Assembly: GCA_000002435.2 (NCBI GenBank) | Contig: CM018790.1 | Origin: Giardia intestinalis | Lineage: Eukaryota | Strand: one strand, 5' to 3' | DNA length: 64,000 nucleotides | Shown: one piece after another, positions 19,060 to 57,036 of the stretch | Layout of the letters: every line of letters starts with the position of its first letter | Position numbering within the stretch: position 1 is the stretch's first letter | Translations under genes and position numbers: made by a program | The notes under the pieces: generated by a model | Databases searched by the model: none | What the model was told of the DNA's origin: nothing | The model's input: the letters and a program-made list of their open reading frames with translations, nothing else

Positions 19060-19097
19060 TAGCGGGGTGGCTAAAAAATAAATCAGGTGACGGTGAG

Positions 19098-19104
19098 AGT
19101 AAAC
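19098..19104 (+). terminator. AGTAAAC polyadenylation signal for the NTF2-like gene
   Basis: Exact AGTAAAC 39 nt after the TGA at 19057..19059, immediately before the ATG of the next gene at 19105. Confidence 0.5.
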
Positions 19105-27677: not shown

Positions 27678-29934
27678 CAGCTACTACTTGTGGGAGAACA
27701 TGCTCTCGAACAAAAGCACCTGCTGCCTCTTCCCCGCACGCAAGAAGAATTGCTGCCAAAATGGCTTCAAATGTATCGCCATAAACCTTGCTGTCAGGCT
27801 GTATTTTCGGATGGGATTCTATAATAACCTCAGAAACTACAGAAGGAAACCTTTTTGTCAATCTTCCCAGTACAGAATTTGTTTCTGCAGATTGCCGCAT
27901 GCGTGTAAGAGCGCCCTCTGTGAGCGTGGGGTGGAGAGCGTGGAGATGGAGAGCAAGGCTGCACTTCAGGAATGCGTCTCCAAGAAGCTCAAGTTTTTGG
28001 TACACGTGAGGAGTTAGTGCTATTTGCAATAACCGAATCAGGAAGGGGATAGTGCCACTAGGAATGGGTACGGCCAGAGATCTGCTAACTGTCTGAGCTG
28101 CTATATGCTTACTACCTCCTGATGACTCATATGCCAGAATCTTCTCATAGAGAGCGAGAACCTTAGAAGCAACGGGCCCTGTAGGGGTTTCTGTGAGCGA
28201 CCCATATAAAACAGGACACTGCACAGAGCGATGATAGATATATAAAACAGGTATAGTGGGCGGACAAGCCGACTCATTCTTATCAGTTTGCTGTTCAACA
28301 TAGAAGCCTGGAGAGCCCAGCCATAGGCCTCGAGCCAAATGTGTCATTATGTCTATAACTGATACGACGCCGCCAGGTCCTGATAGGCCTGAACGATGCG
28401 AAAACTGGATACCAAGTCGGTACCAATCTAGCATGTCCTCTGCTGGAATGTCTCTGAGACGCTCGAGAAACATAGTTGACACCCGCGAAGAACAGAAGAC
28501 ACTAATGCCTTGCTCACAAGCATAGTCCACAAGGCTTCTGAATTCATGCGCCCCCGCTTCTCCCATGCAAACACGCTTTGATGCCTTGGTGACTGCATCT
28601 GGACAGGCAGATCCTACTGTCTTGGAGTGTTCGGGACTCATAAGCGTCTTCGCAAGAAATTCCTCACAGCCATAGATTCCATTAGGTCCCGTAAAGATTG
28701 ATCCAACGATCTCCTCATACATATCTGCCCATGTTTTGCTCTTCGCCACAAGGTTGTTGGAAAACTCCGCCAACTGAGGAAGTCCAAGCGTTTGTACAAG
28801 ATAGTTTAGAGCCTCATTGCGAACAAGCTCCATCTTTAGCTCAACAAGTGTTCCCACAGACGCATCTGGAAAAAGGCAAAGGAGGCGGGCAGTCACGATA
28901 AAGCCTAACACAGCATCTCCTAGCAATTCGAGTCGCTGGAAAACATCGGTGTGACTTACACCAAAAGGCCCAAAGGGTGTTCTCCAACCGGCAAGCCCTC
29001 GTCCACGCCCCTGATCGAGCCGAAGTCCGGCAGTGATTGCAAAGTATCGCTCGCCACCGATCCGCCCACAGTCAGGAAAGCTTTTATCCAGGGCACAGAT
29101 TGTATTCTGTATGTCACATATGTGCTTAGCAATCTCTGGTAGAAATTGAAGCGCCTGGACCCTGATTAGATCAAATTCATCTGGCAGCAGTAGGCAGAGC
29201 TCAGGCGGCAGGAAGCGAAGCTTGGGAGCCAAATCATCCCAGGATCCAGGCGCGGGAATCTGGTGGTCTTTTAGATCGTCTAATCTGACTGCTGCCACAA
29301 GCGGAAGATCTGCAGCACGCAGGTGAATATTGTGGGCTGTTGCATAGTATCTCATGTATGTTATTGATTCATTTGCTCTGGTAAAGTAAGAAAGGCTAGT
29401 TTGGGTAGAATCGATCCCAAGAACGACATAAAGAGACCAGCTTATTTCGGGAGTTGCAACCATACGCCCATGGAGGGATGCAGATAAAGTGGAATAGTCT
29501 GTATATTCATCTGACAAGCGCTTTGCATCACACATGAGTTGTGCAGTGACCATTAATGCACGCAAGTCCAGAGGGCTGGTAGGAGATAGTAAGGGTAAAA
29601 ATGCCAGGGTGGCGAATTGTGGTGGATTGGATATAAATCGAGGGAAAGTGTATTCATTGTGAGGCATTGTTGCTCCAATCTCAGTCCATGAAGCAGGAAA
29701 TGTGGGTCCCAGCAGCTGAAAGAGAATGGACTGATACACGGCTACTATAGTTGCATCAGTTCGAGAGAGAGACACCCTCGGACCCGCTTCAAAGTACACC
29801 TCTGCGGCGGGAAGCCCTCGGCCTGCACTAACCTTAAACCCTGGCAAGGTGCCCAGGTGAGTGTCTAGAAGTAGCAACCAGTGGGATGGTCCTCTAGTAG
29901 TCACAACTGTGCAACAGTGTCCCAAAGCATGCAT
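27670..29934 (-). CDS. dicer: Dicer (minimal PAZ plus two RNase III domains, 754 aa)
   Basis: 754 aa with two RNase III signatures (FQRLELLGDAVLGF, YQKLELLGDAFLKC). Length and N-terminus MHALGHCCTVVTTRGPSHWLLLLDTHLGTLPGFKV match the crystallised Giardia Dicer as I remember it. Confidence 0.92.
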   Translation of the reverse strand: MHALGHCCTVVTTRGPSHWLLLLDTHLGTLPGFKVSAGRGLPAAEVYFEAGPRVSLSRTDATIVAVYQSILFQLLGPTFPASWTEIGATMPHNEYTFPRFISNPPQFATLAFLPLLSPTSPLDLRALMVTAQLMCDAKRLSDEYTDYSTLSASLHGRMVATPEISWSLYVVLGIDSTQTSLSYFTRANESITYMRYYATAHNIHLRAADLPLVAAVRLDDLKDHQIPAPGSWDDLAPKLRFLPPELCLLLPDEFDLIRVQALQFLPEIAKHICDIQNTICALDKSFPDCGRIGGERYFAITAGLRLDQGRGRGLAGWRTPFGPFGVSHTDVFQRLELLGDAVLGFIVTARLLCLFPDASVGTLVELKMELVRNEALNYLVQTLGLPQLAEFSNNLVAKSKTWADMYEEIVGSIFTGPNGIYGCEEFLAKTLMSPEHSKTVGSACPDAVTKASKRVCMGEAGAHEFRSLVDYACEQGISVFCSSRVSTMFLERLRDIPAEDMLDWYRLGIQFSHRSGLSGPGGVVSVIDIMTHLARGLWLGSPGFYVEQQTDKNESACPPTIPVLYIYHRSVQCPVLYGSLTETPTGPVASKVLALYEKILAYESSGGSKHIAAQTVSRSLAVPIPSGTIPFLIRLLQIALTPHVYQKLELLGDAFLKCSLALHLHALHPTLTEGALTRMRQSAETNSVLGRLTKRFPSVVSEVIIESHPKIQPDSKVYGDTFEAILAAILLACGEEAAGAFVREHVLPQVVADA

Positions 29935-30940: not shown

Positions 30941-32170
30941 TTATTCCAAAGATAACTCGGCAAGACAGCGCGTGCATTGACAGGTAAAGCACCACTGCGC
31001 AAGCTCACGCCGACGCTCGACCACCGAGCGACCCAGGTCCGTAATATATGAGATATAAAGTTCCTCTTTTTGGGCACACGGCCGCAATAGAACAAGCGTG
31101 GCTTCGCGCGCATTTTCGCTATCTCCAAAAATAACTTGAGCATTAGGTGTGCAGCTGTGGTTGCAGCAAGATATTAGAGAATAGAGGCCTGCGCCTATCT
31201 CCTGTCCGGTCTTATCCTCTATGCTATAGCTATTTGTTAATAATATGCACACAAAATAGTTAAACATTTGAGCTCCCAAAAGTGTTGCCCTCGTTAATAG
31301 AAAATAATGCTCCGCAAATGATACGTCTGGGATAAGTTTCTCGAAAACACGACCTATATCTGGAAAAACCACATTGGGGAGGTTTTGTGAAGAACTCAGC
31401 TTTGTCTTCCGGGCCTGATTTCCAGGCTCCAGATATGCATAGTACATAAATGCGTATTGGAGGCTCAGTGCTTCGTCCTCTATCTCCATTAGATACGCGG
31501 CCTCTTTGCACATAATTTGGGCCATAATCTCCAGGACGTTATATGCAGAGAAGGGGGCACATAGCTCTGGGCAGTCGTGGATGGTATGCAGAATATCTTC
31601 GGCGATGTCTGGCCAGAGGGAAACACATAGGGCTACATGACCAAGAATGTAATGCCGTTCACGACAATTCTCTGAGCAGTATTCATGCCGACACGAAAAC
31701 GCATTTTCCTTGCGGTGCTTACATGGAACGGGCTGGCCTTTGATTGAAGAAAGACAACAAAAACAGTAACGCTTCTCATTGGTGGGCTGAATGACGTACT
31801 TTGATAGTGAATTGCGAGCCGTTAAGTCCAGGCGTTCGCGTGGAGTCTGGACCGCGGGGCTGATCTGTTCCCGAGGCGAATCAAACTCATCGTGGGTACG
31901 GCCGTGTTGACTGCTTGTTTGCTTATCGGTATAGACCTCCTTGACATAGGATGGGTGAAGCCAGCAGATTAGGGGGTTTTCAACAATAACCTGTGTGCCC
32001 TCTTCGGCATTTTCGGTGAGAAATAACCCTTTCATTTCACCCTGGCGGAAAGTGGCTCGTTTGCTCAGTCGCTTGTTTGCGCGCGACCTCTGTCCAATGA
32101 GTGACCGCCTCACCTCTAGGTTCGTACCCATCAGCAGCTGCGCATAGTGAGCATATAAATCTGTATTCAT
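30941..32170 (-). CDS. SMYD-like SET-domain protein with a MYND-type zinc finger
   Basis: N-terminal SET half GLFLTENAEEGTQVIVENPL; MYND Cys/His cluster CFCCLSS...CKHRKENAFSCRHEYCSENCRERHYILGHVALC; SET-C GAGLYSLISCCNHSCTPNAQVIF...LRPCAQKEELYISY. Confidence 0.7.
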   Translation of the reverse strand: MNTDLYAHYAQLLMGTNLEVRRSLIGQRSRANKRLSKRATFRQGEMKGLFLTENAEEGTQVIVENPLICWLHPSYVKEVYTDKQTSSQHGRTHDEFDSPREQISPAVQTPRERLDLTARNSLSKYVIQPTNEKRYCFCCLSSIKGQPVPCKHRKENAFSCRHEYCSENCRERHYILGHVALCVSLWPDIAEDILHTIHDCPELCAPFSAYNVLEIMAQIMCKEAAYLMEIEDEALSLQYAFMYYAYLEPGNQARKTKLSSSQNLPNVVFPDIGRVFEKLIPDVSFAEHYFLLTRATLLGAQMFNYFVCILLTNSYSIEDKTGQEIGAGLYSLISCCNHSCTPNAQVIFGDSENAREATLVLLRPCAQKEELYISYITDLGRSVVERRRELAQWCFTCQCTRCLAELSLE

Positions 32171-35738: not shown

Positions 35739-38700
35739 ATGCTTCCAACTTTGTTTGTTAAGGTAGATAACGCACAGAAATGGAGCACAACTGATATAAA
35801 ACAGCCCATAGAAAGTGAAGTACTTGATGTTGATATGGTCAGAAGGGTACTAGGGCGGGCTTTTGATCTAAGCAAGTGTCCCCCTAAGCCTACCATTATG
35901 CATGTGGCTAGCTCTGCGCTGTGCAGGGATCCCGTTCCCAGTAGTGTGCTTACTCGGTACGAACAACTCTCAGACCCGCCAATTCTTCTCCGGTCTGTCA
36001 TCGAGCTATTAACGAGAAAATCGGCGATTTGTGTATGGCCACGGCCTAACCCCTCCATAAATTGCGTCAGATTCCAGTTGTCAGCTTCTGAGATGGATGA
36101 GTTGATAGCTCCCCAGCATTCTAACAATATACATCGAGCCACAGATGCAATCCTTAGCGGCCAGCCGGCCTTTCTCCCTGTACGCTATCCCTCTTATTCT
36201 AGCGGATCTTTAGAAGCCTTAGGCGATTTGTCAGGCTATAGCATGGTTCCTAGGAGCTTACGGTCCCCTGGGGGTTCTCGGCGGCCTTGCCTCCACCTTC
36301 TCATTGATATTACCAATGTAACCTATGGAGACACGAATAAGCAACGATATGAGCCTCTCTGGGGCTCCCTAGCGGTTTATCTACGGCGCACAACCGATTC
36401 AAAGCTTACCCTTCACAAGGTCAGTGAAAGCGCACACTTCGACTTCACTACAAAGGATGTGCTAAGTTTAATGGGTCATGAGTCCTCCGGGAGGGACGTA
36501 ACTGCAATTGCTGAGGCCAGCAGGCTTGTTGAGCTTAGGTTTCCCTTGGATTGCGACTACAATTTGGCAGATTTAGTCCTGGTCATGCAACTGGAACAGC
36601 TCTGGCACAATGAACACCAAACAAGGCACGCAATCTATTCTAAGATCATGTCTCAGGAAGGAAAGCAATCTTCCAAAGGCGCGGCGAGAGAGGCAGCCAA
36701 GATGGCCACAGCCAGTATAATTGCAGCCAGCACAGCAAGTGTGGTGAATACGGGGGGTGAAAAGAAGACGCTTTTTGATACTGTCGGCTCTAATGGCTCT
36801 GTAGTGATGACAGAACTTCAGAAGAAGGATCAGAACTCTATTTGCTCACGGGCTGCCAATGTATGGAAGCGTGCTGGTGCAGTGAGGACGCCTGTAGCTT
36901 TCGGCTTTGCATCTCTGGACTTGTCGTCTCTCCTCCTCTCTCCACAGCCAATTTTGGATGGTGTTCATAAGCCATCTTCCGATAAGCTCATGCAGTACAT
37001 TCTGAAATCACACGCACCTATTCTCAGCGGAGATAAAATTCTCATTACACCGCTTTCTAGATACAATCATGGACCAGCGTGGCACTTCGTCCTCTTAGAT
37101 CAAAGTTATGAAGATTTCTTGACTAACTCGGAGGGATTCCACGAACTTCTGGAGGAGCACTACCGTGAATGGTTACGCAAGAACATACCCGAAGTCCACT
37201 ACATCCATGCTTCGCTCACAGTGCAGTTTCTCAACTTGGGAGTCTTCCACCGGTCCAAGAGCATTCTCACTATCTTTTCGGAGCTCTTTTCTTCTACCTC
37301 ACTCAACCCAGACATGACAATCAACCAGACAGTTGCGAGGCAGAGATATCTGCGCAAAGCCTACAACTCGAGCGTGTCATCCTCTTCGGCAAACGATACA
37401 CCTTATTTCCAGGGCACTGATGGTATGAGCTATCCTACTGAGCTGGCTGCTCTTTTATCTGGGGCAGCAGACTGCAGTGCTCCAATTACAGCAGATGACC
37501 TGGTGCGGCTACTCTCAACGAACAGCGAGGCAAACCTGGCACGGGGTATAATGGACTTAGAGGTAGGTGCTACAAGCATCTCCCAGCAAGCAACTACGGC
37601 CCATGGGATTGTGTATTCTGCAGAGCTCGATAACTTCTTCAACAAGCATGCATTTCTGTCACCACTGAACACAGGAATGTTCAACAATAGAATGTATTTA
37701 TATATGAGCAAGTGCTACATCCGACGTAAGTTCACTGGGAACCTGCTTGTGCGTGTGGAACTGCGTGATAGTGATGACTTGTCGTCATATACTATTATTC
37801 AGTCGTTTTACTCTCGGTACACAGATAACTACAACCCAACAAATGCACCATCCTCGAGCATATTTTGCAGTTCTGTCGTCCAGCTGACTGGCTATGAAAG
37901 CTCCAGAGTTGCTCAGCTAGGCGTCAATACTGTGGACCTTCCCCTCTTGCTTCCATCCCAATTAACTTGCTGTGCACCCCACACCAAGGCAGCGTACTTT
38001 GGTACTGAATTCAAGTTGGAACTTCCTTTAGTTATTACAGAGGGCATGCATTTCTTTTTCACGATATATTCGGTCAATGCCTTGCACGGCGATAAGCAAG
38101 ACCGGCTTGTATCACTTGATGACACGATACTCAGCCATGCCAGCAGTGCGTCTGGTATCACTCTAGGGGCATCCAATTTTTCCACATCCATGTCCACAGC
38201 GAGCACTATCTATCGATCCTCTCGGCAGCCAGATTCCACAACAAAGTCTGCGACCACGCACCGTGCTGTCAAGAACGACGCCTTCACCCCTATAGGCTAT
38301 GCCTATCTCCCGCTTCAACAGTTTGACTCTGCACACAACCGCATGTACCATCTCTCTGCCGACTATCTCTCCCTACGAGTGTTTGAGACAGATTTGTCTT
38401 CAGGGTATCTTTCTGCTTCTCCAATCGGAGACCGCACAAGCTCTCACCTAGTCGTAAAGTGCACATCTCAAAGCTCCATTTTCACTCAGAATGTTAATGT
38501 TTTTCAAGTCCTAGAGCAGTACAGTCTGATTGATCAAAGCATCTCCCGCGCGACTGGCTCCATTGCCGGAACCGTGGCAAGCTCGGGCTCCTCTGCCTAT
38601 GAGATAGAGCTTTCTCCCCTAGAGCTTTCCAAATTACTAACTTCTCTTAATGCCAGGCTGCAGGATCTTCTCGAGGTTCTCCAGAAAGGTGAGGACCCGG

Positions 38701-41700
38701 ATCTAATGGTGTCTCTTCTTCACTATCTTCCGGTGTTTATAACAATGCATTCTACTATTCAGTCACGCATACTTCTAATAAGGGAAGTGACTGAGAGCTC
38801 TGTTGTGCTTACAAGTATGGCTCGTGGGCTTTCTCTTTTAGTGCTGATAACACGAACTTTTGAGAGAGACCAGCCATCGAGCCACGACGCTGCTCTTTCT
38901 TATGCACAACGAATTCTCTTTAGTGCATGTGTCTTTCGAAGTAAGCCTCAGTATGACGCATTGCTCCGCGACCAGACGCAGTATGGAAAATTGGTGTCAC
39001 CGTTCCTTCCTTTGGAGCCGGAGCTCAATGCTAATAAGGCTTCAAGGCTGGAAAGGCTGGAAAACATTTCAAAGTTGCAGGAACCGTGGAAGAAAGTATC
39101 TACTACGTCTGCCTATTCCCTTTCATTTCTTCTAGATAGTCGGACCTGTTTTAACAACCCTGTGCCTTCTTTTTACACTAAGCCTTGTACTGACGAAGTA
39201 CCCTCGATCGTTGCCAATGCCGTTTATAAAAGTGCCTACCCAGAGACTCTCTCCGAGCTTACGGGCTTCGTGGAAGCTGCCCTTCTTCACCTAGACGCAG
39301 ACACATCTCTTGGTGCTGCTCTGCAGGCCTCATGGTATAGCCTTCAGCAAATTGAGAAGTCTCTTGCCTTTATATTTGCCGAAACAGAGTGCACTCTGGA
39401 GCACCGATTCTATGAGGCGCTTACACCAGGAGGCCTTCTTTCTCCGATGTCCCAGTCTAAGAGTAGCCCATCAGACGGCGCTAATGCATATGTTCCCCTG
39501 TCACCTCTTAATAGCAAACAAACACCTGTTCTTTCGAGTACTAAATCCCCAGCAACTGTACACACAGATGCTGATCTTCTTTATCTTCAGAGCAGCCTAC
39601 AGAGACTACTGATCATCCTAGGGCGAAAAATGCTGGTCTATATTGCTAGGACCTTAGATAAAGCCGGAGTTCTCCCGGATGTCTCTCGCTCAATTGCCCG
39701 AGTGATATCAGTGTGCCACGCCTTTCATTACGATACTCTAGGCTCGGTACTTACTACTTGTTTCTGTGGCCAAGTGCTACCTACATTAGTCGACACCTCA
39801 TGGTCTTATGGCGAGTTCAAGCAGTTCCAGATCTTCACAAGCATTCAGGACCAAATCAAGGATATGCACTCCACTAACTTTATGTGGAACACCATTGAAG
39901 CAGAGACGCTGGCCAGCATAGAGACCCCTGAACCTGTTGCAAAGATTCTGACCCACTGCTACAAGAACATCTATTATCCCTTCTTTTCCGAAATGTTCTC
40001 TTTAGGGCTACCATATATTCACTTTTCCTACAACCAGTTTCGTCGCTATTCTAAAGCTGGCCGTATAGAAAGCGAAATTGCGCCAGTTCCTCCAGATAAC
40101 TTGGTCTCTATTCGCGAACTTGCCCGTGCACCCGAGGTTCGGTCAGACTCTGTGTCCTCTCACGCTCTGACAAATATGGCTACTAAGCAAGTGCTTCCAC
40201 CATCTTCTCCCACGCAACGAGCTTCTAGTACTTCCACTCCTGTCCCTGGCAGCATTGTTAGAACGATCCCCTCAGCAGCTATTGGGGGCTTTTCTCCACC
40301 TCAAACTCCCGTTTTCCCATCTACGGATAAGTCCTCGCAGCCTGATAAGCAGCGCCAAGATCTATTTAATTCTATTGAGCGCCTGACCACCGAGCAACTC
40401 GTCCCTCCTCTTCTCAAGTATTTTCAGGAAGTGCTGGTTCACTGTCTTATGCGATGTGACAGTGCCACAGTGCAGTTGATAGTGATGTTTATGAAGGAGC
40501 TACTGTTAGACATTCCCTTTTTCACCACAGACGCATTCTTCGGAGGCTGGGACAAGTATACTCATCATACAGCCTTCTTGGTTCGGCCAGTGTTTTATGC
40601 TCTTATCATGACCTTTACCAGAGTAATCTCGCTCTCCTATTCTGCTGATCTACCACAGGCAGTGGGAGCTGCTGCGATAACACAGAGAGCAGAGGCAAGT
40701 GTTTCCGTGGAGGAACGGAAGGTTGACCTCACCTATGGAGAGTCAAGTGATCCGTCAATTCCTGGCTTACAGGCTCAAGACAGTGCGAATCTCCGGGTCG
40801 CTAAAATACAATCTGCGTCCATGGAGCCCAGTAACATCTCCACAATGTCCGGGACACCAAATCTTCAGTTGGGCCGCCTCCCGACCAACATTGCAGCAAC
40901 AAACGCACCAGATAGAGCTATCTCTACAGTTATTGTGCGAACGGTCATCCATCTTATCCTATTTGCGCTTGTCTACGACCGTGACGTCTTAAGTCTCACC
41001 ACCACGTCTCTTGATCATCTAGCTACTGTCTGTCAATGCATTTCTATGATTCCAAAATATTATTCGAGTGACTCGTTGGCCTCCTCGCACTTTCTATCCG
41101 TAGGATCAATGAGCTTTCTGGATCATCACATGGCTAACATATATCAAGCGGCAACGCGGTACGAGATGGACTATATTGTGAAAAGCAGTGAGTTCCACAG
41201 CGCTACAGATAAGATGGCGTGTTTGGTTGGTGTATATCTCAGACAGCTTGAACTTCTTTATTCCCCTTCCCATATTTCAACAAGTCCACAAGTCGATTTG
41301 GCCGCTATAAAATCCCGGCACCAGAGACGGCCGATTAAAGCAAAGATATTTCGTAACCTGTTTGCTAAGAAGCGTTCCGCTAGCTCAACAAAGGGCCTGG
41401 GTCATAATGGGGAACTGGATCTGCTTGAGACGAGTACACTAGCAACCCCCAGTGAGCGCCAGGACAGGTCTCCCATCCGAAAGAGTCTGTTCGATAGCAA
41501 CGCAACGCCTCCGCGAAGCAAGAACGCATTTGTAACGGGCAGAAAGCGTGTCTCCATGCGATCGAAGTCTAAAGGGGGGCAATTGGACAAAATACCAGTG
41601 CAGGAGGCTTCTCAAGACGGAGTGACTGGAGACTATAGCGATATGGATGAGTTTTCTGCCCTGCAGGCATCCCTACTAATCAGCAGTGTTAGGAGCTCGT

Positions 41701-44700
41701 TCCGCAATAGCGGAAGGCTGGGACTATTAGAAGCATCAACAGAAAGCAGTATTCTATTTGATAATCAGTCAGATTCCACCGTATTTCAGCTATATACCAT
41801 AGCTGATTTGGCCACGGATACCTCTGCAAACCAGGCACTTCAAAAGGTAGACGAGCAATGTATCGCTCATCTAGGTCATATTATCCTCGTGCTCGGACTG
41901 TCGTATTTCAAGCGCGTTTTTCACCAATTCCGTATCCTCATTTCCACTATCAAAGGACACGGCGACTACAGGCGCATCATTTCTGGGGGTCCCTTTTATC
42001 CTACTCTTTTAGGTCCTGATAGCTTGCGGCACTCCCCACTCGCTACCAGAGAGCTGGGCAACGTGCAGAATTCCACTGTAATAAAACGAAAGTCGATTGA
42101 TCCGGCAGACAAGTCGTCTGAGCAGGCAAGGCAGAATACCTCCTTCAAGCGCTTAGAAGATGTACCCAACTCGCATACCCTGGTGTGCATGATCGCTAGA
42201 ATGGTGTGGGCGGTGCATCTTACTATTTATAACTTTATTCCTTGCCCCTTATTTACTGATCAACTCAGAATTAAGCTCTTGGATTATGCACGTGACTTCG
42301 TGAGCGGGTATAAGGACTACTTGTATATAGATTCACGGTACTCATCCATTGAGCCGATGTTTGCGTACTTTAACATATATAGGGTTCTATTCCGTTTAGC
42401 AATGGAAAGTAGGGGAGCCCTGCAGAATAAGTCGCTCGCTCCTGCAAAGGACAATAACGATGATCAGCATAAGAAGGCAGTTGAACTCGCAATCGAAGGC
42501 AAAGAAAAACTGTATAAAAAGTCAGTTGAGCTTGTCAGAATGCTGCTTCGAGAAGAGAGCTATCGCATAAATAGGGTTAACAACGTTAGTCTAGTCCAGA
42601 TATCCACTCTTTTCTCAAGTCTAGTCACGAATAAGAACGAGTACGAGACCATGCTCATTGTGATTGATGATATAACTAGAGATAGCAACGCACTGGCTAA
42701 TATATCTGAGAAGCTGCGTCAGATTTTACTGGATCGAAACCATATAAATAACATGGCATTCTGCATCAATCCACATACCGGAAAGCAGTGCTACCAACTG
42801 GATTATCTTTTGAACCTGTACTTTGACCAGGCAGAGCTCTACTTTCAGCAACCAGAGATGCGCTTTGAAGCATTACACGCGTTGTTCCATCTTTTACTGG
42901 AGCATGACAGGCAAATTGAGGCAGCCCACATGGCAATTTTAATGTGCAGCCTCATTTCTGAGTTGACCCACCGAGAGGCCACTATAAGCGACTCCTATGA
43001 CGTGGAACTGCGTTATGCGATCATTCCTGGTCTTCTGATAAGCTCCAAATCGTCGAGGTCTGCCCTTTTGTCGCCAAGGTCTGGCTCACAGGCGCTCTAT
43101 CAAAACATTGTTGATTCTCCGACAATTTCTAGCGTAATTTCGCAAATACCCTATCGGCTGGAGCAAATATGGTTGTTCAGGGAGTGCATCCATGACTTCC
43201 GGCGTATTCTCCCAGGTCTCACGATACAGACGGAAAAAGATGTGATCCAGAGAATGTTTGATCAGAGTGCTTCTCCCTTCTCTCTACACGATTTTTTTGG
43301 ACATCTGGCCACAGCAGGCGAGATCTTTTTAAAGAGCAACTATTTTTGGCAAGCGTCTGTTGTATTCAGTCTGCTACTGCAGCTACATAACAAGTTTGGG
43401 AACATTAACAAAGCAATCGAAGCAGCAGAGCTATACACCAAATCTATCAAGCAATACCTGGCAGGCGAACAAGTGACCAAGTCACGGATGTACCTCGTGT
43501 CATTCCATAACTTCAGTGAAGATGTGGACGTTGAGGAATACATATACTGTAATAACCTCAGTCCAGATGACTTCCGCCTCAATCTGAGAACATTCTATAC
43601 CGCTAAGTACCCTGACGTTATTATTTGCGGCCAGGGCTCGAGACTTGATTCAGACCAAATAAAAGCAAAGACGATACGCATAGCAAATGTGACACCCATC
43701 ACACTCATACCAGGGACAGATTTGACAGAGTCAATCTTGAATCGAATTCAAACATCGCTGCTAGCATACTTTTCCAGGATAATCGGCTCCACGCCAGCAT
43801 CCAACCAACATCACTCGCATGGCCTCAGGAACGTTGCTGTCAATTCTACTGCGAGTGCAATCACCGAAGACTCGCCTCTTAGACCATTGTCGCCTGTTCC
43901 CAGGTTTTCTCAACAAAGACTCGATGCTGCTGGATTTAATGTACATAGATATATTGCTCTAGTTCTTTCGTACGTCTGTGGAGCGACTGGACCCAACTAT
44001 TCCTCCTTAGATCTAAAAGTTAGGCATCCAGACATACAAAAGCAAGGTGCACATCTTTACTCTTTCGTCTTCAAGTACTCGTATGCGGATACACACGAGG
44101 TGGATAGGAGACAAGATGGGAAAACAGCCGTATACGGACAAATAGATCGGTATTGCTTCGTTCCTTACGCATTTCCTTCTTACAAGACTCGTCAGATAGT
44201 AATAGGCTCGTACAGTAACAAGATTCCTCCCATAGTCGCAAGCGCGTTTAGGGTTCTTGAAAAGGCTGCGGCCATCACTCAGCACGTGCAGAATAAGGAT
44301 CCGCTCGGACAGATCCAGCTTACGCTTTCTGGCATGCTTATGGCATTTGTCAACAAAGGACCCGTGCATCTAGCCGAGCTATTCCTGAAGAGAATCGTCC
44401 CAGCCGAGCATAACACTATGCCTAAAGACTTGCACTCCAATCGAACCCAAACCCCTGTCTTGAGTAATGCACTGAGCATAGGCAATCTTAGCATTGCACG
44501 GGTGATATCTCAACGTGCCATCGAGGGAACTCCTCAGGCACAGACTCTACAAGTCTCTATAACCGCGGAAAGTGACACCACGCAGGGGCGCTTCAGTGGA
44601 GCCTTTGGGGCTCTGTATCCCGGTCTCCCAGGAACCACAGTGGGAGCGGGCGCAAGCTATGACACGCTTACACGCTGCAGTATAAGGAATGATGAGCCGT

Positions 44701-45110
44701 CAATGGAGAGTAGAATCAGCCGCGCTTATCGCACAAGTGGATATCTTACATGTCCAGATTTTTCAAGTAATAGGGAGTCTGTGGCAAGCGTTGCCTTCAG
44801 TGACGGCGGGCTTGTGATAGAGTCAAACGCAACCTGTCCTGAGTCTCTCCTGTCTAGCTGGGAAGAGTTCGAACCCTCGGAATACCTGAGTATCAGCTTG
44901 AAGTATATGATGGACCGGATAGTTCTTGGCTTGAGATATTCTACCGAGCTGTGCAAACATGGGATGAATGAGATAACCCTACAAAAAACGCTTATGCAGC
45001 GATGCATCGAGATGATTAACGCCCTTAAATTTTACATTGACGGTTGGGACTACAACCCACTAATTGATCAATGTGTGGCGCTGGCTTCCCTATTAGAAAT
45101 TATTTCCTAG
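35739..45110 (+). CDS. Giant (3123 aa) DOCK-like protein with DHR-1 and DHR-2 motifs
   Basis: DHR-1-like EFKLELPLVITEGMHFFFTIYSV and IGYAYLPLQQFD (nt about 38011..38340). DHR-2-like EEYIYCNNLSPDDFRLNLRTFYTAKYPDVIICGQGSRLDSDQIKAKTIRIANVTPI (nt about 43531..43712), resembling DOCK KEYIYKEPKLT...VKIIQDS.KV...YIQVTYVTPF. Confidence 0.6.
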   Translation: MLPTLFVKVDNAQKWSTTDIKQPIESEVLDVDMVRRVLGRAFDLSKCPPKPTIMHVASSALCRDPVPSSVLTRYEQLSDPPILLRSVIELLTRKSAICVWPRPNPSINCVRFQLSASEMDELIAPQHSNNIHRATDAILSGQPAFLPVRYPSYSSGSLEALGDLSGYSMVPRSLRSPGGSRRPCLHLLIDITNVTYGDTNKQRYEPLWGSLAVYLRRTTDSKLTLHKVSESAHFDFTTKDVLSLMGHESSGRDVTAIAEASRLVELRFPLDCDYNLADLVLVMQLEQLWHNEHQTRHAIYSKIMSQEGKQSSKGAAREAAKMATASIIAASTASVVNTGGEKKTLFDTVGSNGSVVMTELQKKDQNSICSRAANVWKRAGAVRTPVAFGFASLDLSSLLLSPQPILDGVHKPSSDKLMQYILKSHAPILSGDKILITPLSRYNHGPAWHFVLLDQSYEDFLTNSEGFHELLEEHYREWLRKNIPEVHYIHASLTVQFLNLGVFHRSKSILTIFSELFSSTSLNPDMTINQTVARQRYLRKAYNSSVSSSSANDTPYFQGTDGMSYPTELAALLSGAADCSAPITADDLVRLLSTNSEANLARGIMDLEVGATSISQQATTAHGIVYSAELDNFFNKHAFLSPLNTGMFNNRMYLYMSKCYIRRKFTGNLLVRVELRDSDDLSSYTIIQSFYSRYTDNYNPTNAPSSSIFCSSVVQLTGYESSRVAQLGVNTVDLPLLLPSQLTCCAPHTKAAYFGTEFKLELPLVITEGMHFFFTIYSVNALHGDKQDRLVSLDDTILSHASSASGITLGASNFSTSMSTASTIYRSSRQPDSTTKSATTHRAVKNDAFTPIGYAYLPLQQFDSAHNRMYHLSADYLSLRVFETDLSSGYLSASPIGDRTSSHLVVKCTSQSSIFTQNVNVFQVLEQYSLIDQSISRATGSIAGTVASSGSSAYEIELSPLELSKLLTSLNARLQDLLEVLQKGEDPDLMVSLLHYLPVFITMHSTIQSRILLIREVTESSVVLTSMARGLSLLVLITRTFERDQPSSHDAALSYAQRILFSACVFRSKPQYDALLRDQTQYGKLVSPFLPLEPELNANKASRLERLENISKLQEPWKKVSTTSAYSLSFLLDSRTCFNNPVPSFYTKPCTDEVPSIVANAVYKSAYPETLSELTGFVEAALLHLDADTSLGAALQASWYSLQQIEKSLAFIFAETECTLEHRFYEALTPGGLLSPMSQSKSSPSDGANAYVPLSPLNSKQTPVLSSTKSPATVHTDADLLYLQSSLQRLLIILGRKMLVYIARTLDKAGVLPDVSRSIARVISVCHAFHYDTLGSVLTTCFCGQVLPTLVDTSWSYGEFKQFQIFTSIQDQIKDMHSTNFMWNTIEAETLASIETPEPVAKILTHCYKNIYYPFFSEMFSLGLPYIHFSYNQFRRYSKAGRIESEIAPVPPDNLVSIRELARAPEVRSDSVSSHALTNMATKQVLPPSSPTQRASSTSTPVPGSIVRTIPSAAIGGFSPPQTPVFPSTDKSSQPDKQRQDLFNSIERLTTEQLVPPLLKYFQEVLVHCLMRCDSATVQLIVMFMKELLLDIPFFTTDAFFGGWDKYTHHTAFLVRPVFYALIMTFTRVISLSYSADLPQAVGAAAITQRAEASVSVEERKVDLTYGESSDPSIPGLQAQDSANLRVAKIQSASMEPSNISTMSGTPNLQLGRLPTNIAATNAPDRAISTVIVRTVIHLILFALVYDRDVLSLTTTSLDHLATVCQCISMIPKYYSSDSLASSHFLSVGSMSFLDHHMANIYQAATRYEMDYIVKSSEFHSATDKMACLVGVYLRQLELLYSPSHISTSPQVDLAAIKSRHQRRPIKAKIFRNLFAKKRSASSTKGLGHNGELDLLETSTLATPSERQDRSPIRKSLFDSNATPPRSKNAFVTGRKRVSMRSKSKGGQLDKIPVQEASQDGVTGDYSDMDEFSALQASLLISSVRSSFRNSGRLGLLEASTESSILFDNQSDSTVFQLYTIADLATDTSANQALQKVDEQCIAHLGHIILVLGLSYFKRVFHQFRILISTIKGHGDYRRIISGGPFYPTLLGPDSLRHSPLATRELGNVQNSTVIKRKSIDPADKSSEQARQNTSFKRLEDVPNSHTLVCMIARMVWAVHLTIYNFIPCPLFTDQLRIKLLDYARDFVSGYKDYLYIDSRYSSIEPMFAYFNIYRVLFRLAMESRGALQNKSLAPAKDNNDDQHKKAVELAIEGKEKLYKKSVELVRMLLREESYRINRVNNVSLVQISTLFSSLVTNKNEYETMLIVIDDITRDSNALANISEKLRQILLDRNHINNMAFCINPHTGKQCYQLDYLLNLYFDQAELYFQQPEMRFEALHALFHLLLEHDRQIEAAHMAILMCSLISELTHREATISDSYDVELRYAIIPGLLISSKSSRSALLSPRSGSQALYQNIVDSPTISSVISQIPYRLEQIWLFRECIHDFRRILPGLTIQTEKDVIQRMFDQSASPFSLHDFFGHLATAGEIFLKSNYFWQASVVFSLLLQLHNKFGNINKAIEAAELYTKSIKQYLAGEQVTKSRMYLVSFHNFSEDVDVEEYIYCNNLSPDDFRLNLRTFYTAKYPDVIICGQGSRLDSDQIKAKTIRIANVTPITLIPGTDLTESILNRIQTSLLAYFSRIIGSTPASNQHHSHGLRNVAVNSTASAITEDSPLRPLSPVPRFSQQRLDAAGFNVHRYIALVLSYVCGATGPNYSSLDLKVRHPDIQKQGAHLYSFVFKYSYADTHEVDRRQDGKTAVYGQIDRYCFVPYAFPSYKTRQIVIGSYSNKIPPIVASAFRVLEKAAAITQHVQNKDPLGQIQLTLSGMLMAFVNKGPVHLAELFLKRIVPAEHNTMPKDLHSNRTQTPVLSNALSIGNLSIARVISQRAIEGTPQAQTLQVSITAESDTTQGRFSGAFGALYPGLPGTTVGAGASYDTLTRCSIRNDEPSMESRISRAYRTSGYLTCPDFSSNRESVASVAFSDGGLVIESNATCPESLLSSWEEFEPSEYLSISLKYMMDRIVLGLRYSTELCKHGMNEITLQKTLMQRCIEMINALKFYIDGWDYNPLIDQCVALASLLEIIS

Positions 45111-48888: not shown

Positions 48889-49926
48889 TCACTTGTCATC
48901 GGCCTTATCGGCATCCTCGACAACTTCGTCGTCATCATCATCTCCAGTGGACTCTTCTTCCTTGGAGTCATTGTTTGCTGCCTCGCGCTCCGCAATGGTC
49001 CTCTTCAAGGCCTCGGCCGCGTCATTCTCCATCTTTTTGATGTCATCCATAGTCATTCCTTTCCACTCATCCCACCAGATACAGCACTTCTTGTGTGTTT
49101 CTGTGAACACCGACTCCATCTTCTTCCCTAGTATGCCTTCGATGAGCTTCTCGCCTGGAAAAGCCGTATGGACCTTCAGGATTTTGTAGACTATGCAATG
49201 GTCGCCGTTGTTTTCCTTAGAGATACGCTTAATGTCTGCCTTCAGAGGGCCCTCACTGAGAGCCTTCGGTGCTTCCCTGTTCTCCTTGGCAGCAAGCTTC
49301 TTCTCCTTAGCTTCCTTTTTCTTGTCTATCTTCAGAGGCTGTGTGACATCGCAATACACACGCTCGATGACACCCCCCTTGGCCTCTGCAAACTCTAGCT
49401 TCGAAATATCCTCTGTATCTTTGCGCTCTTTAAGGGCCTCCTTGTCCTTCTTCAGCGATTCCTTATCTTTCTTCTCAAGAGTAAATGACTCCGGTATACT
49501 CTTGCGAACCTCCTCGGGGAGGTCGAAGGTCTCGGCGTATGATGCGTTCTTCGGAGCACTATAGACCCAGGTCTCAACCGACATCGCCAGCTTATCGGGG
49601 TACCCGGGGTTATGGTAGGACGTAACCGTGTGGGGGAAGGCGTTGTAACAGGTCTCCTCCATCTTGAGACCCTTCTTGGGAATCAGATTTGCAATGGCCT
49701 TGGGTACCATTTTGGACAAGTGAAGCAGCTTAAAGGTATAGATGCCGGATTCCTCCTGTCCTGAGGGGAGTGTGCGAGTGTACGGCTCATTTTTGAGAAT
49801 CTCAAACCCATCAGAAGACTTCTTGGAGCTCTCTTCTAAGGTAGATCTGGCAACCATGTAGAGCTGCCCGAGTTTATACTTCTCGATCGAGAAGGGAAGG
49901 GGGATGGCAAACACATAGTAGCGCAT
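48889..49926 (-). CDS. Phosphatidylinositol transfer protein (PITP) with an acidic C-terminal tail
   Basis: MRYYVFAIPLPFSIEKYKLGQLYMVARST matches PITP-alpha [29 protein letters not shown], and CCIWWDEWKGMTMDDIKKME matches FCWLDKWVDLTMDDIRRME. Track start 49962 is TTG; true ATG is cat 49924..49926. Confidence 0.85.
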   Translation of the reverse strand: MRYYVFAIPLPFSIEKYKLGQLYMVARSTLEESSKKSSDGFEILKNEPYTRTLPSGQEESGIYTFKLLHLSKMVPKAIANLIPKKGLKMEETCYNAFPHTVTSYHNPGYPDKLAMSVETWVYSAPKNASYAETFDLPEEVRKSIPESFTLEKKDKESLKKDKEALKERKDTEDISKLEFAEAKGGVIERVYCDVTQPLKIDKKKEAKEKKLAAKENREAPKALSEGPLKADIKRISKENNGDHCIVYKILKVHTAFPGEKLIEGILGKKMESVFTETHKKCCIWWDEWKGMTMDDIKKMENDAAEALKRTIAEREAANNDSKEEESTGDDDDDEVVEDADKADDK

Positions 49927-49998
49927 GTATTTTTGTTGTCGAATATTGTTTTTAAGACACAAAATTTTGAATTTCCCAACTTCGTATTTTCAAAAAGC

Positions 49999-51507
49999 AT
50001 GGCAACTAATCGCTTCGTCGTAGCGCACTTCGAGGCCTATCAGAAAGCACGGCAAGATTTTGTTCAGGGGCTAGCAGAATTAGCACAGCATCCCCAGAAT
50101 GTGGAAACGATAAAATCTCTCGGTGGTGTGGCTCTCTGCAGATCTTTGTTAATGGATAATGTGCCATCCATACAGCACTCTGCGGCCACAGCTCTAGGGA
50201 GAATTGCTAACTTTTCCGAGGAGATGGCCGAACTGGTCGTTGCGAACGATGTTCTTCCTCAGTTGGTATTCTCTCTCGCGGAACGGAATCGGCACTACCA
50301 AAAAGCCGCAGCATTTGTGCTTCGCAGTGTCGCCCGTCACTCTCCGTCTCTGGCCCAGGCTGTGGTTGATGCAGGATCTTTAGAGCCTCTTGCAATCTGT
50401 TTGGACGAGTTTGATCCGTGTGTCAAGGAGGCTGCAGCTTGGGCACTGGGGTACATTGCACGTCATAACGAGCACTTAGCGCAAGCAGTTGTTGATGCTG
50501 GCGCTGTTCCTTTTCTCATTGCTGCTGCACAAGAACCTGAGCTGAGCCTGAAACGCATCGCTGTTTCGGCTCTTTCAGACATATCTAAACACACACCAGA
50601 ACTCGCACAAGCAGTCGTGGACGCTGGGGCTATCTCCTACATCAGTCCTCTAATCTCGTCTAAGGATGCGAGGGTGCGACGCCAGGTGTGCTCCGCCTTG
50701 TCTCAGCTGGCCAAGCACTCAGTGGAACTGGCAGAGCTCTGCGTTGAAGGTGAGATATTTCCACGTGCCCTTCTTCTTCTTCGGGACAAGGACAGTATTA
50801 CTTCGCGCAACGCGGCGACACTTGTTCGCGAGGTGGTAAAGCACACAGCAGAGTTGGCTCAGCTAGTCGTTAATGCTGGAGGCATTGGTGCCCTCGTTGA
50901 GTTCATATCTGTGACGCGAGGACCAGACCGGCTTCCAGGAATAATGGCTCTGGGCTTTATAGCAGCCTTTAGCGAAACTTTGGCCCTCTCCATTATAGTT
51001 GCAAAGGGGGTGACGCCGTTAGTCAGTTGCCTGGTCTCTGAAGTAGAGGATCATGTGCTGGCTGCAACTGTTTGGACCTTGGGGCAGATAGGCCGTCACT
51101 CCCCCGACCATGCGAAAGCCATCTGTGACGCAAACGTTCTGCCCAAACTTCTGGCTCTATTCATCAGTGAGAGCTCCAGTGACGACCTAAGACAAAAGGC
51201 GAAGAGAAGTATCAAGTTCACTGTACAAAAGACAACAGCGCTCCCTGCCCTTGACCCCCTGCTCTTCCAGAGTCCACCGTCCATACTGAAGCACGTCGTG
51301 GCTCAGTATGCAAAGATACTCCCCAAGGATGTAGAGTCCAGGAGACAATTTGTTACATCCGGCGGATTGCAGAAAATACAATCCATCGCATGTGAGCCGG
51401 GAACAAAACTTTATGAAGCCATCGAGCAATGCAATGCGTGCTTCCCAGACGAAATAGTTAAGTACTACACCCGAAAGCCAGAGAATATGCTCGATCTGAT
51501 CAAGTAA
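49999..51507 (+). CDS. PF16: SPAG6 / PF16 armadillo-repeat protein (axonemal central-pair)
   Basis: Collinear match to human SPAG6 over most of its length (FEAYQKARQDFVQGLAELAQHPQNVETI vs FEQYQKARTQFVQMVAELATRPQNIETL; KEAAAWALGYIARHNEHLAQAVVDAGAVP identical stretch). 502 aa versus 509. Track start is TTG; true ATG at 49999. AGTAAAT overlaps the stop. Confidence 0.92.
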   Translation: MATNRFVVAHFEAYQKARQDFVQGLAELAQHPQNVETIKSLGGVALCRSLLMDNVPSIQHSAATALGRIANFSEEMAELVVANDVLPQLVFSLAERNRHYQKAAAFVLRSVARHSPSLAQAVVDAGSLEPLAICLDEFDPCVKEAAAWALGYIARHNEHLAQAVVDAGAVPFLIAAAQEPELSLKRIAVSALSDISKHTPELAQAVVDAGAISYISPLISSKDARVRRQVCSALSQLAKHSVELAELCVEGEIFPRALLLLRDKDSITSRNAATLVREVVKHTAELAQLVVNAGGIGALVEFISVTRGPDRLPGIMALGFIAAFSETLALSIIVAKGVTPLVSCLVSEVEDHVLAATVWTLGQIGRHSPDHAKAICDANVLPKLLALFISESSSDDLRQKAKRSIKFTVQKTTALPALDPLLFQSPPSILKHVVAQYAKILPKDVESRRQFVTSGGLQKIQSIACEPGTKLYEAIEQCNACFPDEIVKYYTRKPENMLDLIK

Positions 51508-55298: not shown

Positions 55299-56909
55299 AT
55301 GTTCTTTACTTTCGTATGGACTACGGTAACTATATTGAGCTCGGAAACAAATACAATAGACTCTTCTGAACCGTACCGTAATGGTTTTGGAGATACTTGC
55401 CGTGCTGGACAGGTAGGCTCTTGCGTTAGTAACAAGTGTATCAACATAGGAAGATTCGCTAACGTTTGCACAGAGTGTCAGGGGGACAAGGTTCCTATCA
55501 ACGGTGTTTGTAGTGATGGTTCTGGACGCGACCAGAACCCAGATACCTCTATGTGTGTGAAGGTGACTAAGAACGGGTCATCATACTGTACAGGCTGTAA
55601 CGCAAAGTCTGCAAGTGACAATACGTTCTTTCTTTTCTATGGGGGATGCTATGATACTAAGGATTTCCCTGGATCGAACATTTGCTCTACGGCTAGCAAC
55701 GGAGTTTGTTCATCGTGCAATCCCAATAGTAGATTTGTGTTTGTTAATCCAAACAATCAAGCACCTGAGAAGTGCATCCTGTGCTCTGACAATGTTGGAT
55801 TCAGTGGAAATCAAGGTGTAGCAGGTTGTGCAGTGTGTCTCGAGGGCTCTTGGAAGCACGCACCATTCCAGGACGCCGGTGTCCAGTGCACTGTTTGTTT
55901 CTTGAAAGAATATGCCCCCATAGATGGCTCGTGCAAGGAGTTTAACCCGCACATCTGTAGCGATGGATATTGCACATACTGCTATAAGACACACATATAT
56001 CACAATGGCGGATGCTACGATAGAAATCAGCAGTACAGTGCTTCAATCTGCTCCCCAGAAAATCAGTTTGTTCTTGGAGATTATACAGGTTGCAAAGAGT
56101 GTGCAAATGAAAACGAAGTACCACGTGAGGGGGGCTGCAAGCGGACACTGAATGTTGATAATTGTTCTAAGGACGCTGCGAAGGGTATGTGTCTCGACTG
56201 CCGAAAGCATAACCCTGGCACCACCGTCTTTCTATACATGGGAGGCTGCTACAACACCACTGAACGCATGGGACAGCAGGTATGTTCGTCAGCTTCAAAC
56301 GGAGTCTGCACAACATGCGCCATCAGCGGGTGTACTAAGTGTGACCTTCAGTCGACCGTGATTCAGTGTAACGACTGTGGGTCAGGCTATCTCAGTTTGG
56401 ATAAGTCTATGTGCCTCCAGTCGTGCCCAGCACCGAGTCAGCGGCCAGCAGCGGGCTCTCCCAACAAATGCGAATGCAGTGATGGCTATGTTTTTAATCA
56501 AGTCAGTACAACGTGCGATTCAGTAACTAATTGCCCAGCTAGCGTCACCGGCTGTTCCACCTGTGATAATGCTGGCTTGTGCCTGACCTGTGTGTATCCT
56601 GCGTACAGCATTCAGCCAGATAGGCGGTCGTGTTCCTTGGGATGCCCAGACAATTTTATCGGAGTGGCTGGAGAAATGTGCCGTTGCAAAGACGGATACA
56701 TTTTGCAGGGGAGTACATGCATTGCCATGTCCAATAAGGCAGGCCTTGCTACTGGGTCAGTAGTCGCCATAGTGGTCGTGGTCTTAGTTCTCTTGGTGGT
56801 TGCTGGTGTCCTTTGCTGGTTCTTCCTCAAGAAGAAGAAGGTAATCAAGAATAAGCCCACACACTCGCTAGAAAATCTCGGTTTGGTATCTGCTGTAGAT
56901 ACGCTGTAA
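55299..56909 (+). CDS. High-cysteine membrane protein (VSP-like, HCMP type, not a canonical VSP)
   Basis: Signal peptide; many CXXC and GGCY motifs (FLFYGGCYD, YHNGGCYD, LYMGGCYN); transmembrane segment VAIVVVVLVLLVVAGVL followed by a 40-aa tail (KKKKVIKNKPTHSLENLGLVSAVDTL) instead of CRGKA. Confidence 0.8.
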   Translation: MFFTFVWTTVTILSSETNTIDSSEPYRNGFGDTCRAGQVGSCVSNKCINIGRFANVCTECQGDKVPINGVCSDGSGRDQNPDTSMCVKVTKNGSSYCTGCNAKSASDNTFFLFYGGCYDTKDFPGSNICSTASNGVCSSCNPNSRFVFVNPNNQAPEKCILCSDNVGFSGNQGVAGCAVCLEGSWKHAPFQDAGVQCTVCFLKEYAPIDGSCKEFNPHICSDGYCTYCYKTHIYHNGGCYDRNQQYSASICSPENQFVLGDYTGCKECANENEVPREGGCKRTLNVDNCSKDAAKGMCLDCRKHNPGTTVFLYMGGCYNTTERMGQQVCSSASNGVCTTCAISGCTKCDLQSTVIQCNDCGSGYLSLDKSMCLQSCPAPSQRPAAGSPNKCECSDGYVFNQVSTTCDSVTNCPASVTGCSTCDNAGLCLTCVYPAYSIQPDRRSCSLGCPDNFIGVAGEMCRCKDGYILQGSTCIAMSNKAGLATGSVVAIVVVVLVLLVVAGVLCWFFLKKKKVIKNKPTHSLENLGLVSAVDTL

Positions 56910-57036
56910 TGGAGGTACTGCTTGTGCCTTGATTCTTGTGGCCTCCGCCTTCGTTTGGTAATATTGGTAAAGTCCTTTATGAATAAATTTTCCCAGAGCT
57001 TGCCTTCACTTCCTTGCTAATTTGAAAATAATTGTT

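Follow-up and report, generated by a model that had tools for sequence, protein, structure and literature searches.

A giant, highly divergent DOCK-family protein of Giardia intestinalis as a probable activator of GlRac

The human DOCK-C proteins (DOCK6, DOCK7 and DOCK8, or 'Zir') and plant SPIKE1 have a common domain order, in which an N-terminal domain (NTD) is followed by a C2 domain (DHR-3), DHR-1, an ARM region and DHR-2, without SH3 or PH domains (PMC13503879, PMC10152721). In diplomonads, DOCK proteins are already on record, while Dbl-type exchange factors for guanine nucleotides (GEFs) are lacking (PMC5499878). Giardia has a sole Rho GTPase, GlRac (PMC4999545), which governs trafficking during encystation as well as the ventrolateral flange and cytokinesis (PMC4999545, PMC9089883). 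Here we describe a gene encoding a giant protein, GL50803_114209 (hereafter 114209), and its paralogue GL50803_114201 (114201), both located in a 64,000-nucleotide stretch of contig CM018790.1 of Giardia intestinalis (GCA_000002435.2), referred to below as the window. The two genes are as follows.

35739-45110, + strand: 114209 gene (GL50803_114209), ATG to stop, 3123 codons plus stop; divergent DOCK-family protein
7521-18503, - strand: 114201 gene (GL50803_114201), the paralogue; 3660 aa, same domain order, nearer canonical DOCKs

We consider it probable that 114209 is a functional, highly divergent member of the DOCK Rho-GEFs, an old paralogue of 114201, and that it acts on GlRac, a GEF role that we infer by analogy.

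Domain architecture and DHR-2 fold of 114209

The architecture of 114209 is DOCK-C-like, comprising a DHR-3-like C2 domain, DHR-1, a long linker and DHR-2 lobes A, B and C, with neither SH3 nor PH. The features are listed below, where E denotes the expectation value and dN/dS the ratio of nonsynonymous to synonymous substitution rates.

36210-36998, + strand: N-terminal shared block, residues ~158-420; C2 equivalent to DOCK6 DHR-3/C2
37611-38498, + strand: DHR-1 (C2 DOCK-type), residues ~625-920; contains RVELRDSDD, EFKLELPLVITEGMHFFFTIYSV and IGYAYLPL
38499-42755, + strand: linker, residues ~921-2339 (~1.4 kaa), where DOCKs have the ARM/HEAT solenoid
42756-43478, + strand: DHR-2 lobe A, residues ~2340-2580; Pfam PF06920, BLASTP E 3e-8 to the paralogue
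43479-44228, + strand: DHR-2 lobe B, residues ~2581-2830; MYLVSF..EEYIYCNN..FY..IRIANVTP and YAFPSYKTRQ strands, two low-confidence inserts
44229-44408, + strand: DHR-2 lobe C helix alpha10 and insert, residues ~2831-2890; motif LSGMLMAFVNKGPVHLAELFL
44349-44351, + strand: Val2871 codon, corresponding to Val1951 of DOCK9, the DOCK nucleotide sensor; 44346-44363 translates to FVNKGP
44409-45107, + strand: C-terminal extension, residues 2891-3123 (233 aa); conserved, dN/dS 0.05-0.075

Two family alignments were used: A3, which holds four sequences of the 114209 family (from WB, assemblage B, a third lineage and G. muris), and A4, which holds 114201 of WB and assemblage B plus a 4685-aa relative, P0005. 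Pfam matches were judged by the curated cut-offs (33.6 bits for DOCK-C2, 26 bits for lobe A and 26 bits for lobe C). By these cut-offs, 114201 contains both DOCK-C2 (34.4 bits) and DHR-2 lobe A (32.3 bits).

A profile of the N-terminal block made from both families gave a single PDB match at E <= 10, to residues 280-354 of the DOCK6 chain (E 5.4e-4). In the cryo-electron microscopy structure of DOCK6, the NTD spans residues 44-256, Val263 lies within the C2 domain (DHR-3), and Arg563/568 lie in DHR-1 (PMC13503879); on this domain map, the block is therefore a DHR-3-type C2. The offset of 6 residues applied to the DOCK6 chain was derived by hand from the positions of Arg563/568 in the alignment with the A4 profile. 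The C2 domain is interrupted by a non-conserved insert (residues ~308-365) and lies N-terminal of DHR-1, the tandem C2 arrangement that every human DOCK and SPIKE1 are reported to have.

DHR-1 is recognized by Pfam PF14429 at residues 746-919 (36.2 bits, E 7.6e-9) in spite of a Ser/Thr-rich insert at residues ~800-845. Furthermore, residues 742-780 align with residues 609-647 of the DOCK6 chain, in DHR-1 (phmmer). The first loop of the domain carries a basic cluster, RRK, at residues 662-664 (37722-37730), of which R663 and K664 are invariant across three G. intestinalis lineages. In a hand alignment made from HMMER output, this loop aligns approximately with the DOCK6 loop that holds the phosphoinositide-binding residues Arg563 and Arg568; 114201 has a single Arg at the position of the cluster.

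The linker shows no hhalign match to regions of the paralogue (E >= 0.17) and no Pfam match, and its position suggests that it may be a helical solenoid. It is under purifying selection (dN/dS 0.03-0.12). SH3, PH and other N-terminal Pfam domains gave no match in 114209 at E <= 1.

The DHR-2 region was modelled with AlphaFold2 (AF2) over residues 2340-2900, giving a mean predicted local distance difference test score (pLDDT) of 61.2 and a predicted template modelling score (pTM) of 0.50, with 231 residues at pLDDT >= 70. The model runs in the order helices, beta sheets, helix. Specifically, lobe A, which reaches 33.9 bits with PF06920, is helical at pLDDT 70-93 outside a disordered insert (residues 2418-2475), and lobe B contains beta strands at residues 2583-2605, 2645-2654 and 2775-2829. 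Six lobe-B columns, Y2601, Y2603, Y2620, I2646, P2813 and Q2819, show no variation when the two Giardia families are aligned with a canonical DHR-2 fragment. Lobe C scores below the cut-off with Pfam PF20421 (21.4 bits); it matches the paralogue at E 9e-7 in BLASTP and aligns with lobe C of DOCK7, DOCK8 and DOCK6 in phmmer.

With a threshold of E <= 0.001, a Foldseek search of PDB with the AF2 model returned 19 matches (2.6e-13 to 3.6e-6), all of them DOCK DHR-2 domains, from DOCK10, DOCK9, DOCK2, DOCK5, DOCK8 and DOCK7; the next match has an E of 0.08. The alignments cover 511-537 columns with the full DHR-2 chains of DOCK9, DOCK10 and DOCK2. The Pfam match of lobe A, the order of lobes in the model and the Foldseek matches are those of a three-lobe DHR-2, with lobe C sub-threshold and lobe B lacking a Pfam match.

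The C-terminal extension has no significant match to the tail of the paralogue or to any PDB chain. Its last ~70 residues bear a visual resemblance to the lobe-C helices of canonical DOCKs that are missing after alpha10, and may correspond to them; in that case lobe C would be split by an insert of ~160 aa (~385 aa in 114201). Helices alpha11-13 of lobe C were sought in the extreme C-terminus of 114209, with hhalign E of 0.013-0.24 and no match in two PDB searches.

In the alpha10 insert of DOCK9, Gln1950 (Thr in DOCK7, Lys in DOCK10) directly precedes the invariant sensor Val1951 (PMC10152721), and the sensor is therefore the V of V-N-x-G-P. Val2871 of 114209 falls in one column with the valine of VNQGP (DOCK7 and DOCK6) and of VNAGP (DOCK10), and an alignment of eight sequences, covering both Giardia families and one canonical DHR-2 fragment, has G2865, V2871, G2874, F2882 and L2883 invariant. 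The sensor valine is retained in 114201, as part of SVNSGT (residue 3189), and in the motif LSGILMAYVNRG of the G. muris orthologue GMRT_14231. A Val-to-Leu change at the sensor of 114209 (LSGMLMAFVNKGP vs LQGSVGTTVNQGP) was considered and rejected as a register error, because PMC10152721 fixes the V of V-N-x-G-P, which both paralogues keep.

Judged by sequence and predicted fold, 114209 is a very divergent member of the DOCK (CZH) family, and both giants appear nearer to DOCK-C/D than to DOCK-A/B. Searched against all PDB sequences, 114209 matches DOCK6, DOCK7, DOCK8 and DOCK10 only, and either giant matches only DOCK6, DOCK7, DOCK8, DOCK9 and DOCK10; the DOCK1, DOCK2 and DOCK5 chains present in PDB had no sequence-level match from either giant in these searches. 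The A4 profile matches DOCK6 in five collinear pieces (E 8e-20), as well as DOCK10 (3e-14), DOCK9 (1.5e-10), DOCK8 and DOCK7.

The best PDB sequence matches of 114209 are to DOCK-C, with which it has the DHR-2 motif ..G....VN.GP....FL in common. It differs from DOCK-C in being ~1000 aa longer, in the large inserts that interrupt DHR-3, DHR-1 and each of lobes A to C, in extra sequence past alpha10, and in a similarity far below the usual family levels (single-digit to ~16 bits in phmmer). SPIKE1, compared through the literature, has the same domain order. The best fold matches of the DHR-2 model are to DOCK-D (DOCK9/10/11, the zizimins), with Foldseek E of 2.6e-13 for DOCK10 and ~3e-11 for DOCK9; DOCK-D has an N-terminal PH, whereas 114209 has no PH match (Pfam, E <= 1). 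DOCK-A/B (DOCK1-5, the CDM proteins) share the DHR-1/DHR-2 logic, and DOCK2 and DOCK5 are fold matches at E 1.5e-10 to 4.5e-8. The N-terminal SH3 and ELMO-binding helical region of DOCK-A/B were not found in 114209 and, since no SH3 was detected, no basis for ELMO binding was found.

Selection on 114209 and its candidate role in GlRac activation

The open reading frame (ORF) of 114209 is an exact match to G. intestinalis WB protein KAE8302006.1 / XP_037901683.1 (GL50803_00114209) in an exact-sequence look-up. Other G. intestinalis lineages carry intact full-length orthologues that are 99%, 81-82% (assemblage B) and 75% identical to it, and the gene order around 114209 is kept in an assemblage-B contig. 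The G. muris orthologue GMRT_14231 (TNJ30230.1; 2704 aa) is collinear over its full length at 35% identity and 1155 bits, and is 419 aa shorter than 114209, mainly through losses in inserts and linker. Compared with assemblage B, 114209 has a whole-gene dN/dS of 0.058 (Nei-Gojobori), with dS close to saturation, and every 250-codon window, those in the unalignable linker and the C-terminal extension included, lies at 0.03-0.12. Thus 114209 is under strong purifying selection over the whole 3123-codon frame, with DHR-2 as its most constrained part (dN/dS 0.03-0.05). The exact database match, the orthologues including that of G. muris, the synteny and the purifying selection establish that 114209 is a real gene.

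By analogy with the known behaviour of DOCK9, DOCK2, DOCK6 and DOCK7, 114209 would most likely be a membrane-targeted GEF for GlRac. In particular, the two C2 domains would bring 114209, probably as a dimer formed through lobe A, to a phosphoinositide-containing membrane. Lobes B and C would then clamp and open switch 1 of GDP-bound GlRac, and Val2871 would enter the nucleotide pocket and displace Mg2+, so that GDP leaves. Binding of GTP-Mg2+ would in turn free active GlRac.

Because diplomonads lack Dbl GEFs and Giardia has a single Rho GTPase, the two DOCKs are candidate GlRac activators, and 114209 and 114201 are the only candidates found here. One may speculate that the two paralogues activate GlRac at different places or times. 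Our literature searches found no work that ties GlRac to an identified GEF and none that links GlRac with DOCK. A full-text search for '114209', covering expression and interaction data, returned nothing relevant, and the supplements of the flange paper mention neither 114209 nor 114201.

Several points weigh against the assignment of 114209 as a GlRac exchange factor. Both its exchange activity and GlRac as its substrate are drawn from analogy. The AF2 model of DHR-2 is only moderately confident (pLDDT 61, pTM 0.50) and omits the C-terminal 223 residues, and it therefore falls short of a complete lobe-C four-helix bundle. Pfam places lobe C of 114209 under its cut-off and gives no match for lobe B, in which the canonical motif YFRVxFYG..FG is degraded to MYLVSFHNF. 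The A3 profile, unlike A4, barely reaches the PDB DOCKs (E 0.08-0.44), which marks 114209 as the faster-evolving copy. Finally, Fort and Blangy report DOCK proteins in organisms without Rac (PMC5499878), so that a DHR-2 need not imply Rac-GEF activity.

Several of these points also speak for a reading in which 114209 is a DOCK-derived scaffold or pseudo-GEF, or a GEF for another small GTPase, and the slower-evolving 114201 is the real GlRac activator. The unequal divergence of the two families (E 8e-20 to DOCK6 for that of 114201, 0.08 at best for that of 114209), the sub-threshold lobe C, the unmatched and degenerate lobe B, and the existence of DOCKs in species without Rac, together with the mention of catalysis-independent DOCK functions (PMC5499878), all fit such a reading. 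We nevertheless regard it as unlikely: all four sequences of the 114209 family, that of G. muris included, keep the catalytic valine and the motif around it unchanged, the gene is most constrained in DHR-2, and the predicted fold can still be aligned with entire DHR-2 domains along more than 510 columns.

It is similarly improbable that 114209 has been freed from Rac activation for a new job, or that the two DOCKs divide GlRac activation among distinct processes. In the former case, 114209 may perform exchange on a non-Rho GTPase or serve as a catalysis-independent scaffold, served by the family-specific 1.4-kaa linker and the 233-aa extension; in the latter, for example, one copy may act in encystation trafficking and the other in control of the flange or cytokinesis. 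A functional, divergent exchange factor for GlRac remains the assignment that we prefer.

Homology and age of the two paralogues

The original prediction, made from the letters of the window, had described 114209 as a divergent paralogue of 114201, 17 kb away on the opposite strand, with the same motif order. This is borne out by the ORFs, BLASTP, hhalign and the Pfam DOCK domains present in both proteins. The two ORFs are separated by 17,235 bp and lie on opposite strands, and every motif that had been quoted is found, collinear in both translations. In 114209, these are RVELRDSDD at residue 672, EFKLELPLVITEGMHFFFTIYSV at 757, IGYAYLPLQQFD at 852 and, in the C-terminal third, EEYIYCNN at 2599 and KTIRIANVTPI at 2644. 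In 114201, they are KVEMRSDDALDDKD at residue 1000, VKFELPLYITPKTHFLFTLYGV at 1059, LGYAYLPLVKG at 1204, TEYIYCC at 2925 and KIIVQKVEPY at 2961.

BLASTP with composition-adjusted statistics aligns the two proteins in four collinear high-scoring segment pairs. Specifically, residues 158-307 of 114209 match 222-382 of 114201 (E 3e-10), 625-798 match 954-1107 (E 2e-10), 2348-2574 match 2690-2854 (E 3e-8) and 2793-2885 match 3114-3203 (E 9e-7). Their scores of 55.5, 55.1, 48.1 and 43.5 bits compare with maxima of 30.4 bits in 100 global and 28.9 bits in 100 local (30-aa) shuffles of the partner protein. The entropy of the shared blocks is 3.99-4.08 bits, against 4.11 for the whole 114209 protein, in which no 40-aa window falls under 3.0 bits.

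At the profile level, A3 and A4 match over 469 DHR-2 columns with an hhalign E of 3.6e-41. When six regions of each family were compared with one another by hhalign, only the cognate pairs matched (N-block, 3.8e-16; DHR-1, 8.3e-22; DHR-2, 4.5e-23), and the 33 other pairs all had E >= 0.075, which confirms homology and leaves the linkers and tails unrelated in sequence. Pairwise comparison, shuffles and profile alignment thus agree that the shared blocks are homologous and that 114209 is, as far as sequence comparison can tell, a true old paralogue of 114201.

The original prediction also held that identity is low outside the shared blocks and that only the catalytic and C2 cores were retained. 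The first statement stands, as neither the linkers nor the C-terminal tails of the two proteins can be aligned. The second needs amendment, since three cores are kept rather than two: the N-terminal DHR-3-like C2, which is the block at residues 158-307 that had been overlooked, DHR-1 and DHR-2. The paralogues are therefore alike in three modules in one order, the sensor valine, giant size, a long linker and extra sequence past alpha10, and unlike in that their identity (~25%) is confined to the modules, the linkers and tails are unrelated, and 114201 is 537 aa longer.

The duplication had been proposed to be ancient, and the present data support a date before the split of G. intestinalis and G. 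muris. Both paralogues are present in assemblage B, and in a DHR-2 tree GMRT_14231 joins the 114209 family, apart from the 114201 family, at 98.7% bootstrap. The orthologues of 114201 include GL50581_3982 and probably P0005. When 1.84 billion representatives were scanned exhaustively by HMMER with the DHR-2 profile of 114209, only five proteins reached E <= 0.001, namely its own cluster, GMRT_14231, P0005, the 114201 cluster and one canonical DOCK fragment; there is therefore no sign of a third Giardia DOCK.

P0005 is a DOCK protein of a Giardia-like organism, encoded on Logan contig SRR31929897_181098 (L002 10001-24058) in a locus of 61.9% guanine plus cytosine. Its full-length scores lean to the 114201 family (282 vs 159 bits; summed BLAST, 444 vs 278 bits), its lobe B keeps the canonical motif YFRIAFYG..FGEALDGKEYIY, and the genes around it show no synteny with the window.

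How the two genes arose was considered further. With database sizes equalized, 114209 obtains 180 bits (E 3e-52) from the A4 profile, and DOCK6, the solved DOCK that fits this profile best, obtains 72 bits; from the A3 profile, 114201 obtains 108 bits and the best PDB DOCK 12.5 bits. These scores, together with the common restriction of matches to DOCK-C/D, favour a duplication in the lineage leading to Giardia over the retention of two ancestral subfamilies. Descent from separate DOCK subfamilies of the last eukaryotic common ancestor would accommodate the ~25% identity limited to three domains; moreover, the DHR-2 tree places P0005 with a bootstrap of only 34% and holds neither metamonad outgroups nor human DOCKs, and the resemblance of the paralogues to each other could be inflated by fast evolution in both. 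We give such separate descent a low probability, however, as no solved DOCK comes as close to either paralogue as the other paralogue does, and as both match DOCK-C/D chains only, never DOCK1/2/5, and lack SH3 and PH.

A coincidence of composition or low complexity in two long spurious ORFs, which the original prediction had set as its own refutation and which the Ser/Thr-rich character of both proteins, their long unalignable stretches and a pairwise identity of just 24-29% might suggest, has next to no likelihood left and is refuted by the tests made: shuffles reach at most 30.4 bits against the observed 43-55, block entropy is normal, hhalign matches are cognate only, curated Pfam models match both proteins, the fold search yields DOCK domains only, and purifying selection and the G. 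muris orthologue mark a real gene.

Genomic neighbourhood and significance

Between the two DOCK genes lie cpn60 and a protein that matches the Pfam "Giardia Dicer N-terminal domain" (E 1e-100), and comparison of the window ORFs with Pfam confirms the earlier remark that the DOCK genes flank a Dicer and mitosomal (cpn60) neighbourhood. A functional tie of the DOCK genes to the intervening Dicer and cpn60 was rejected, as nothing supports it and the neighbourhood is ordinary gene-dense Giardia sequence.

Other features of the window are as follows. The Dicer ORF (27670-29934, - strand; 754 aa in the window, called as 661 aa in the assemblage-B contig) is overlapped at its 3' end by a 1776-aa MORN-repeat ORF (22347-27677, - strand), which begins 8 nt within it. 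Two SET-domain proteins lie between the DOCK genes, on either side of Dicer, at 19087-21717 (+ strand, 876 aa) and 30941-32170 (- strand, 409 aa). A phosphatidylinositol-transfer protein (48889-49962, - strand) and an armadillo-repeat protein (49933-51507, + strand) have ORFs whose 5' ends overlap by 30 nt; each ORF is listed from a TTG codon, so that the true starts probably lie further in. A VSP-like cysteine-rich protein (55299-56909, + strand; Pfam VSP, E 1.4e-14) adjoins a GTPase with MMR_HSR1 and TGS domains (57022-58158, + strand), which we take to be of the OBG/DRG type.

Public databases already contain gene 114209 and its DOCK domains, and the UniProt and Pfam pipelines tag both giants with such domains. 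The 114201 ORF is an exact match to KAE8301995.1 (GL50803_00114201, G. intestinalis WB; exact-sequence look-up). NCBI labels both giants "hypothetical protein", orthologues in isolates DH, P15 and GS carry the automatic UniProt name "C2 DOCK-type domain-containing protein", and some records name 114201 orthologues "putative GTP-binding protein". 114209 belongs to a known family, within which it is unusually divergent and uncharacterised, and represents no new kind of system. To the original prediction, of which both the observation and the interpretation are supported, our analysis adds one further domain, the N-terminal C2, and a dated duplication.

The two giants illustrate the extent of divergence, and of interruption by inserts, that DHR-3, DHR-1 and DHR-2 can undergo with the sensor motif kept. 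With exactly two candidate GEFs for GlRac, both of them giant DOCKs with an intact catalytic valine, the switching of GlRac becomes directly testable. If the proposed role is true, Giardia would offer a very reduced model of Rho signalling, with one GTPase and two GEFs.

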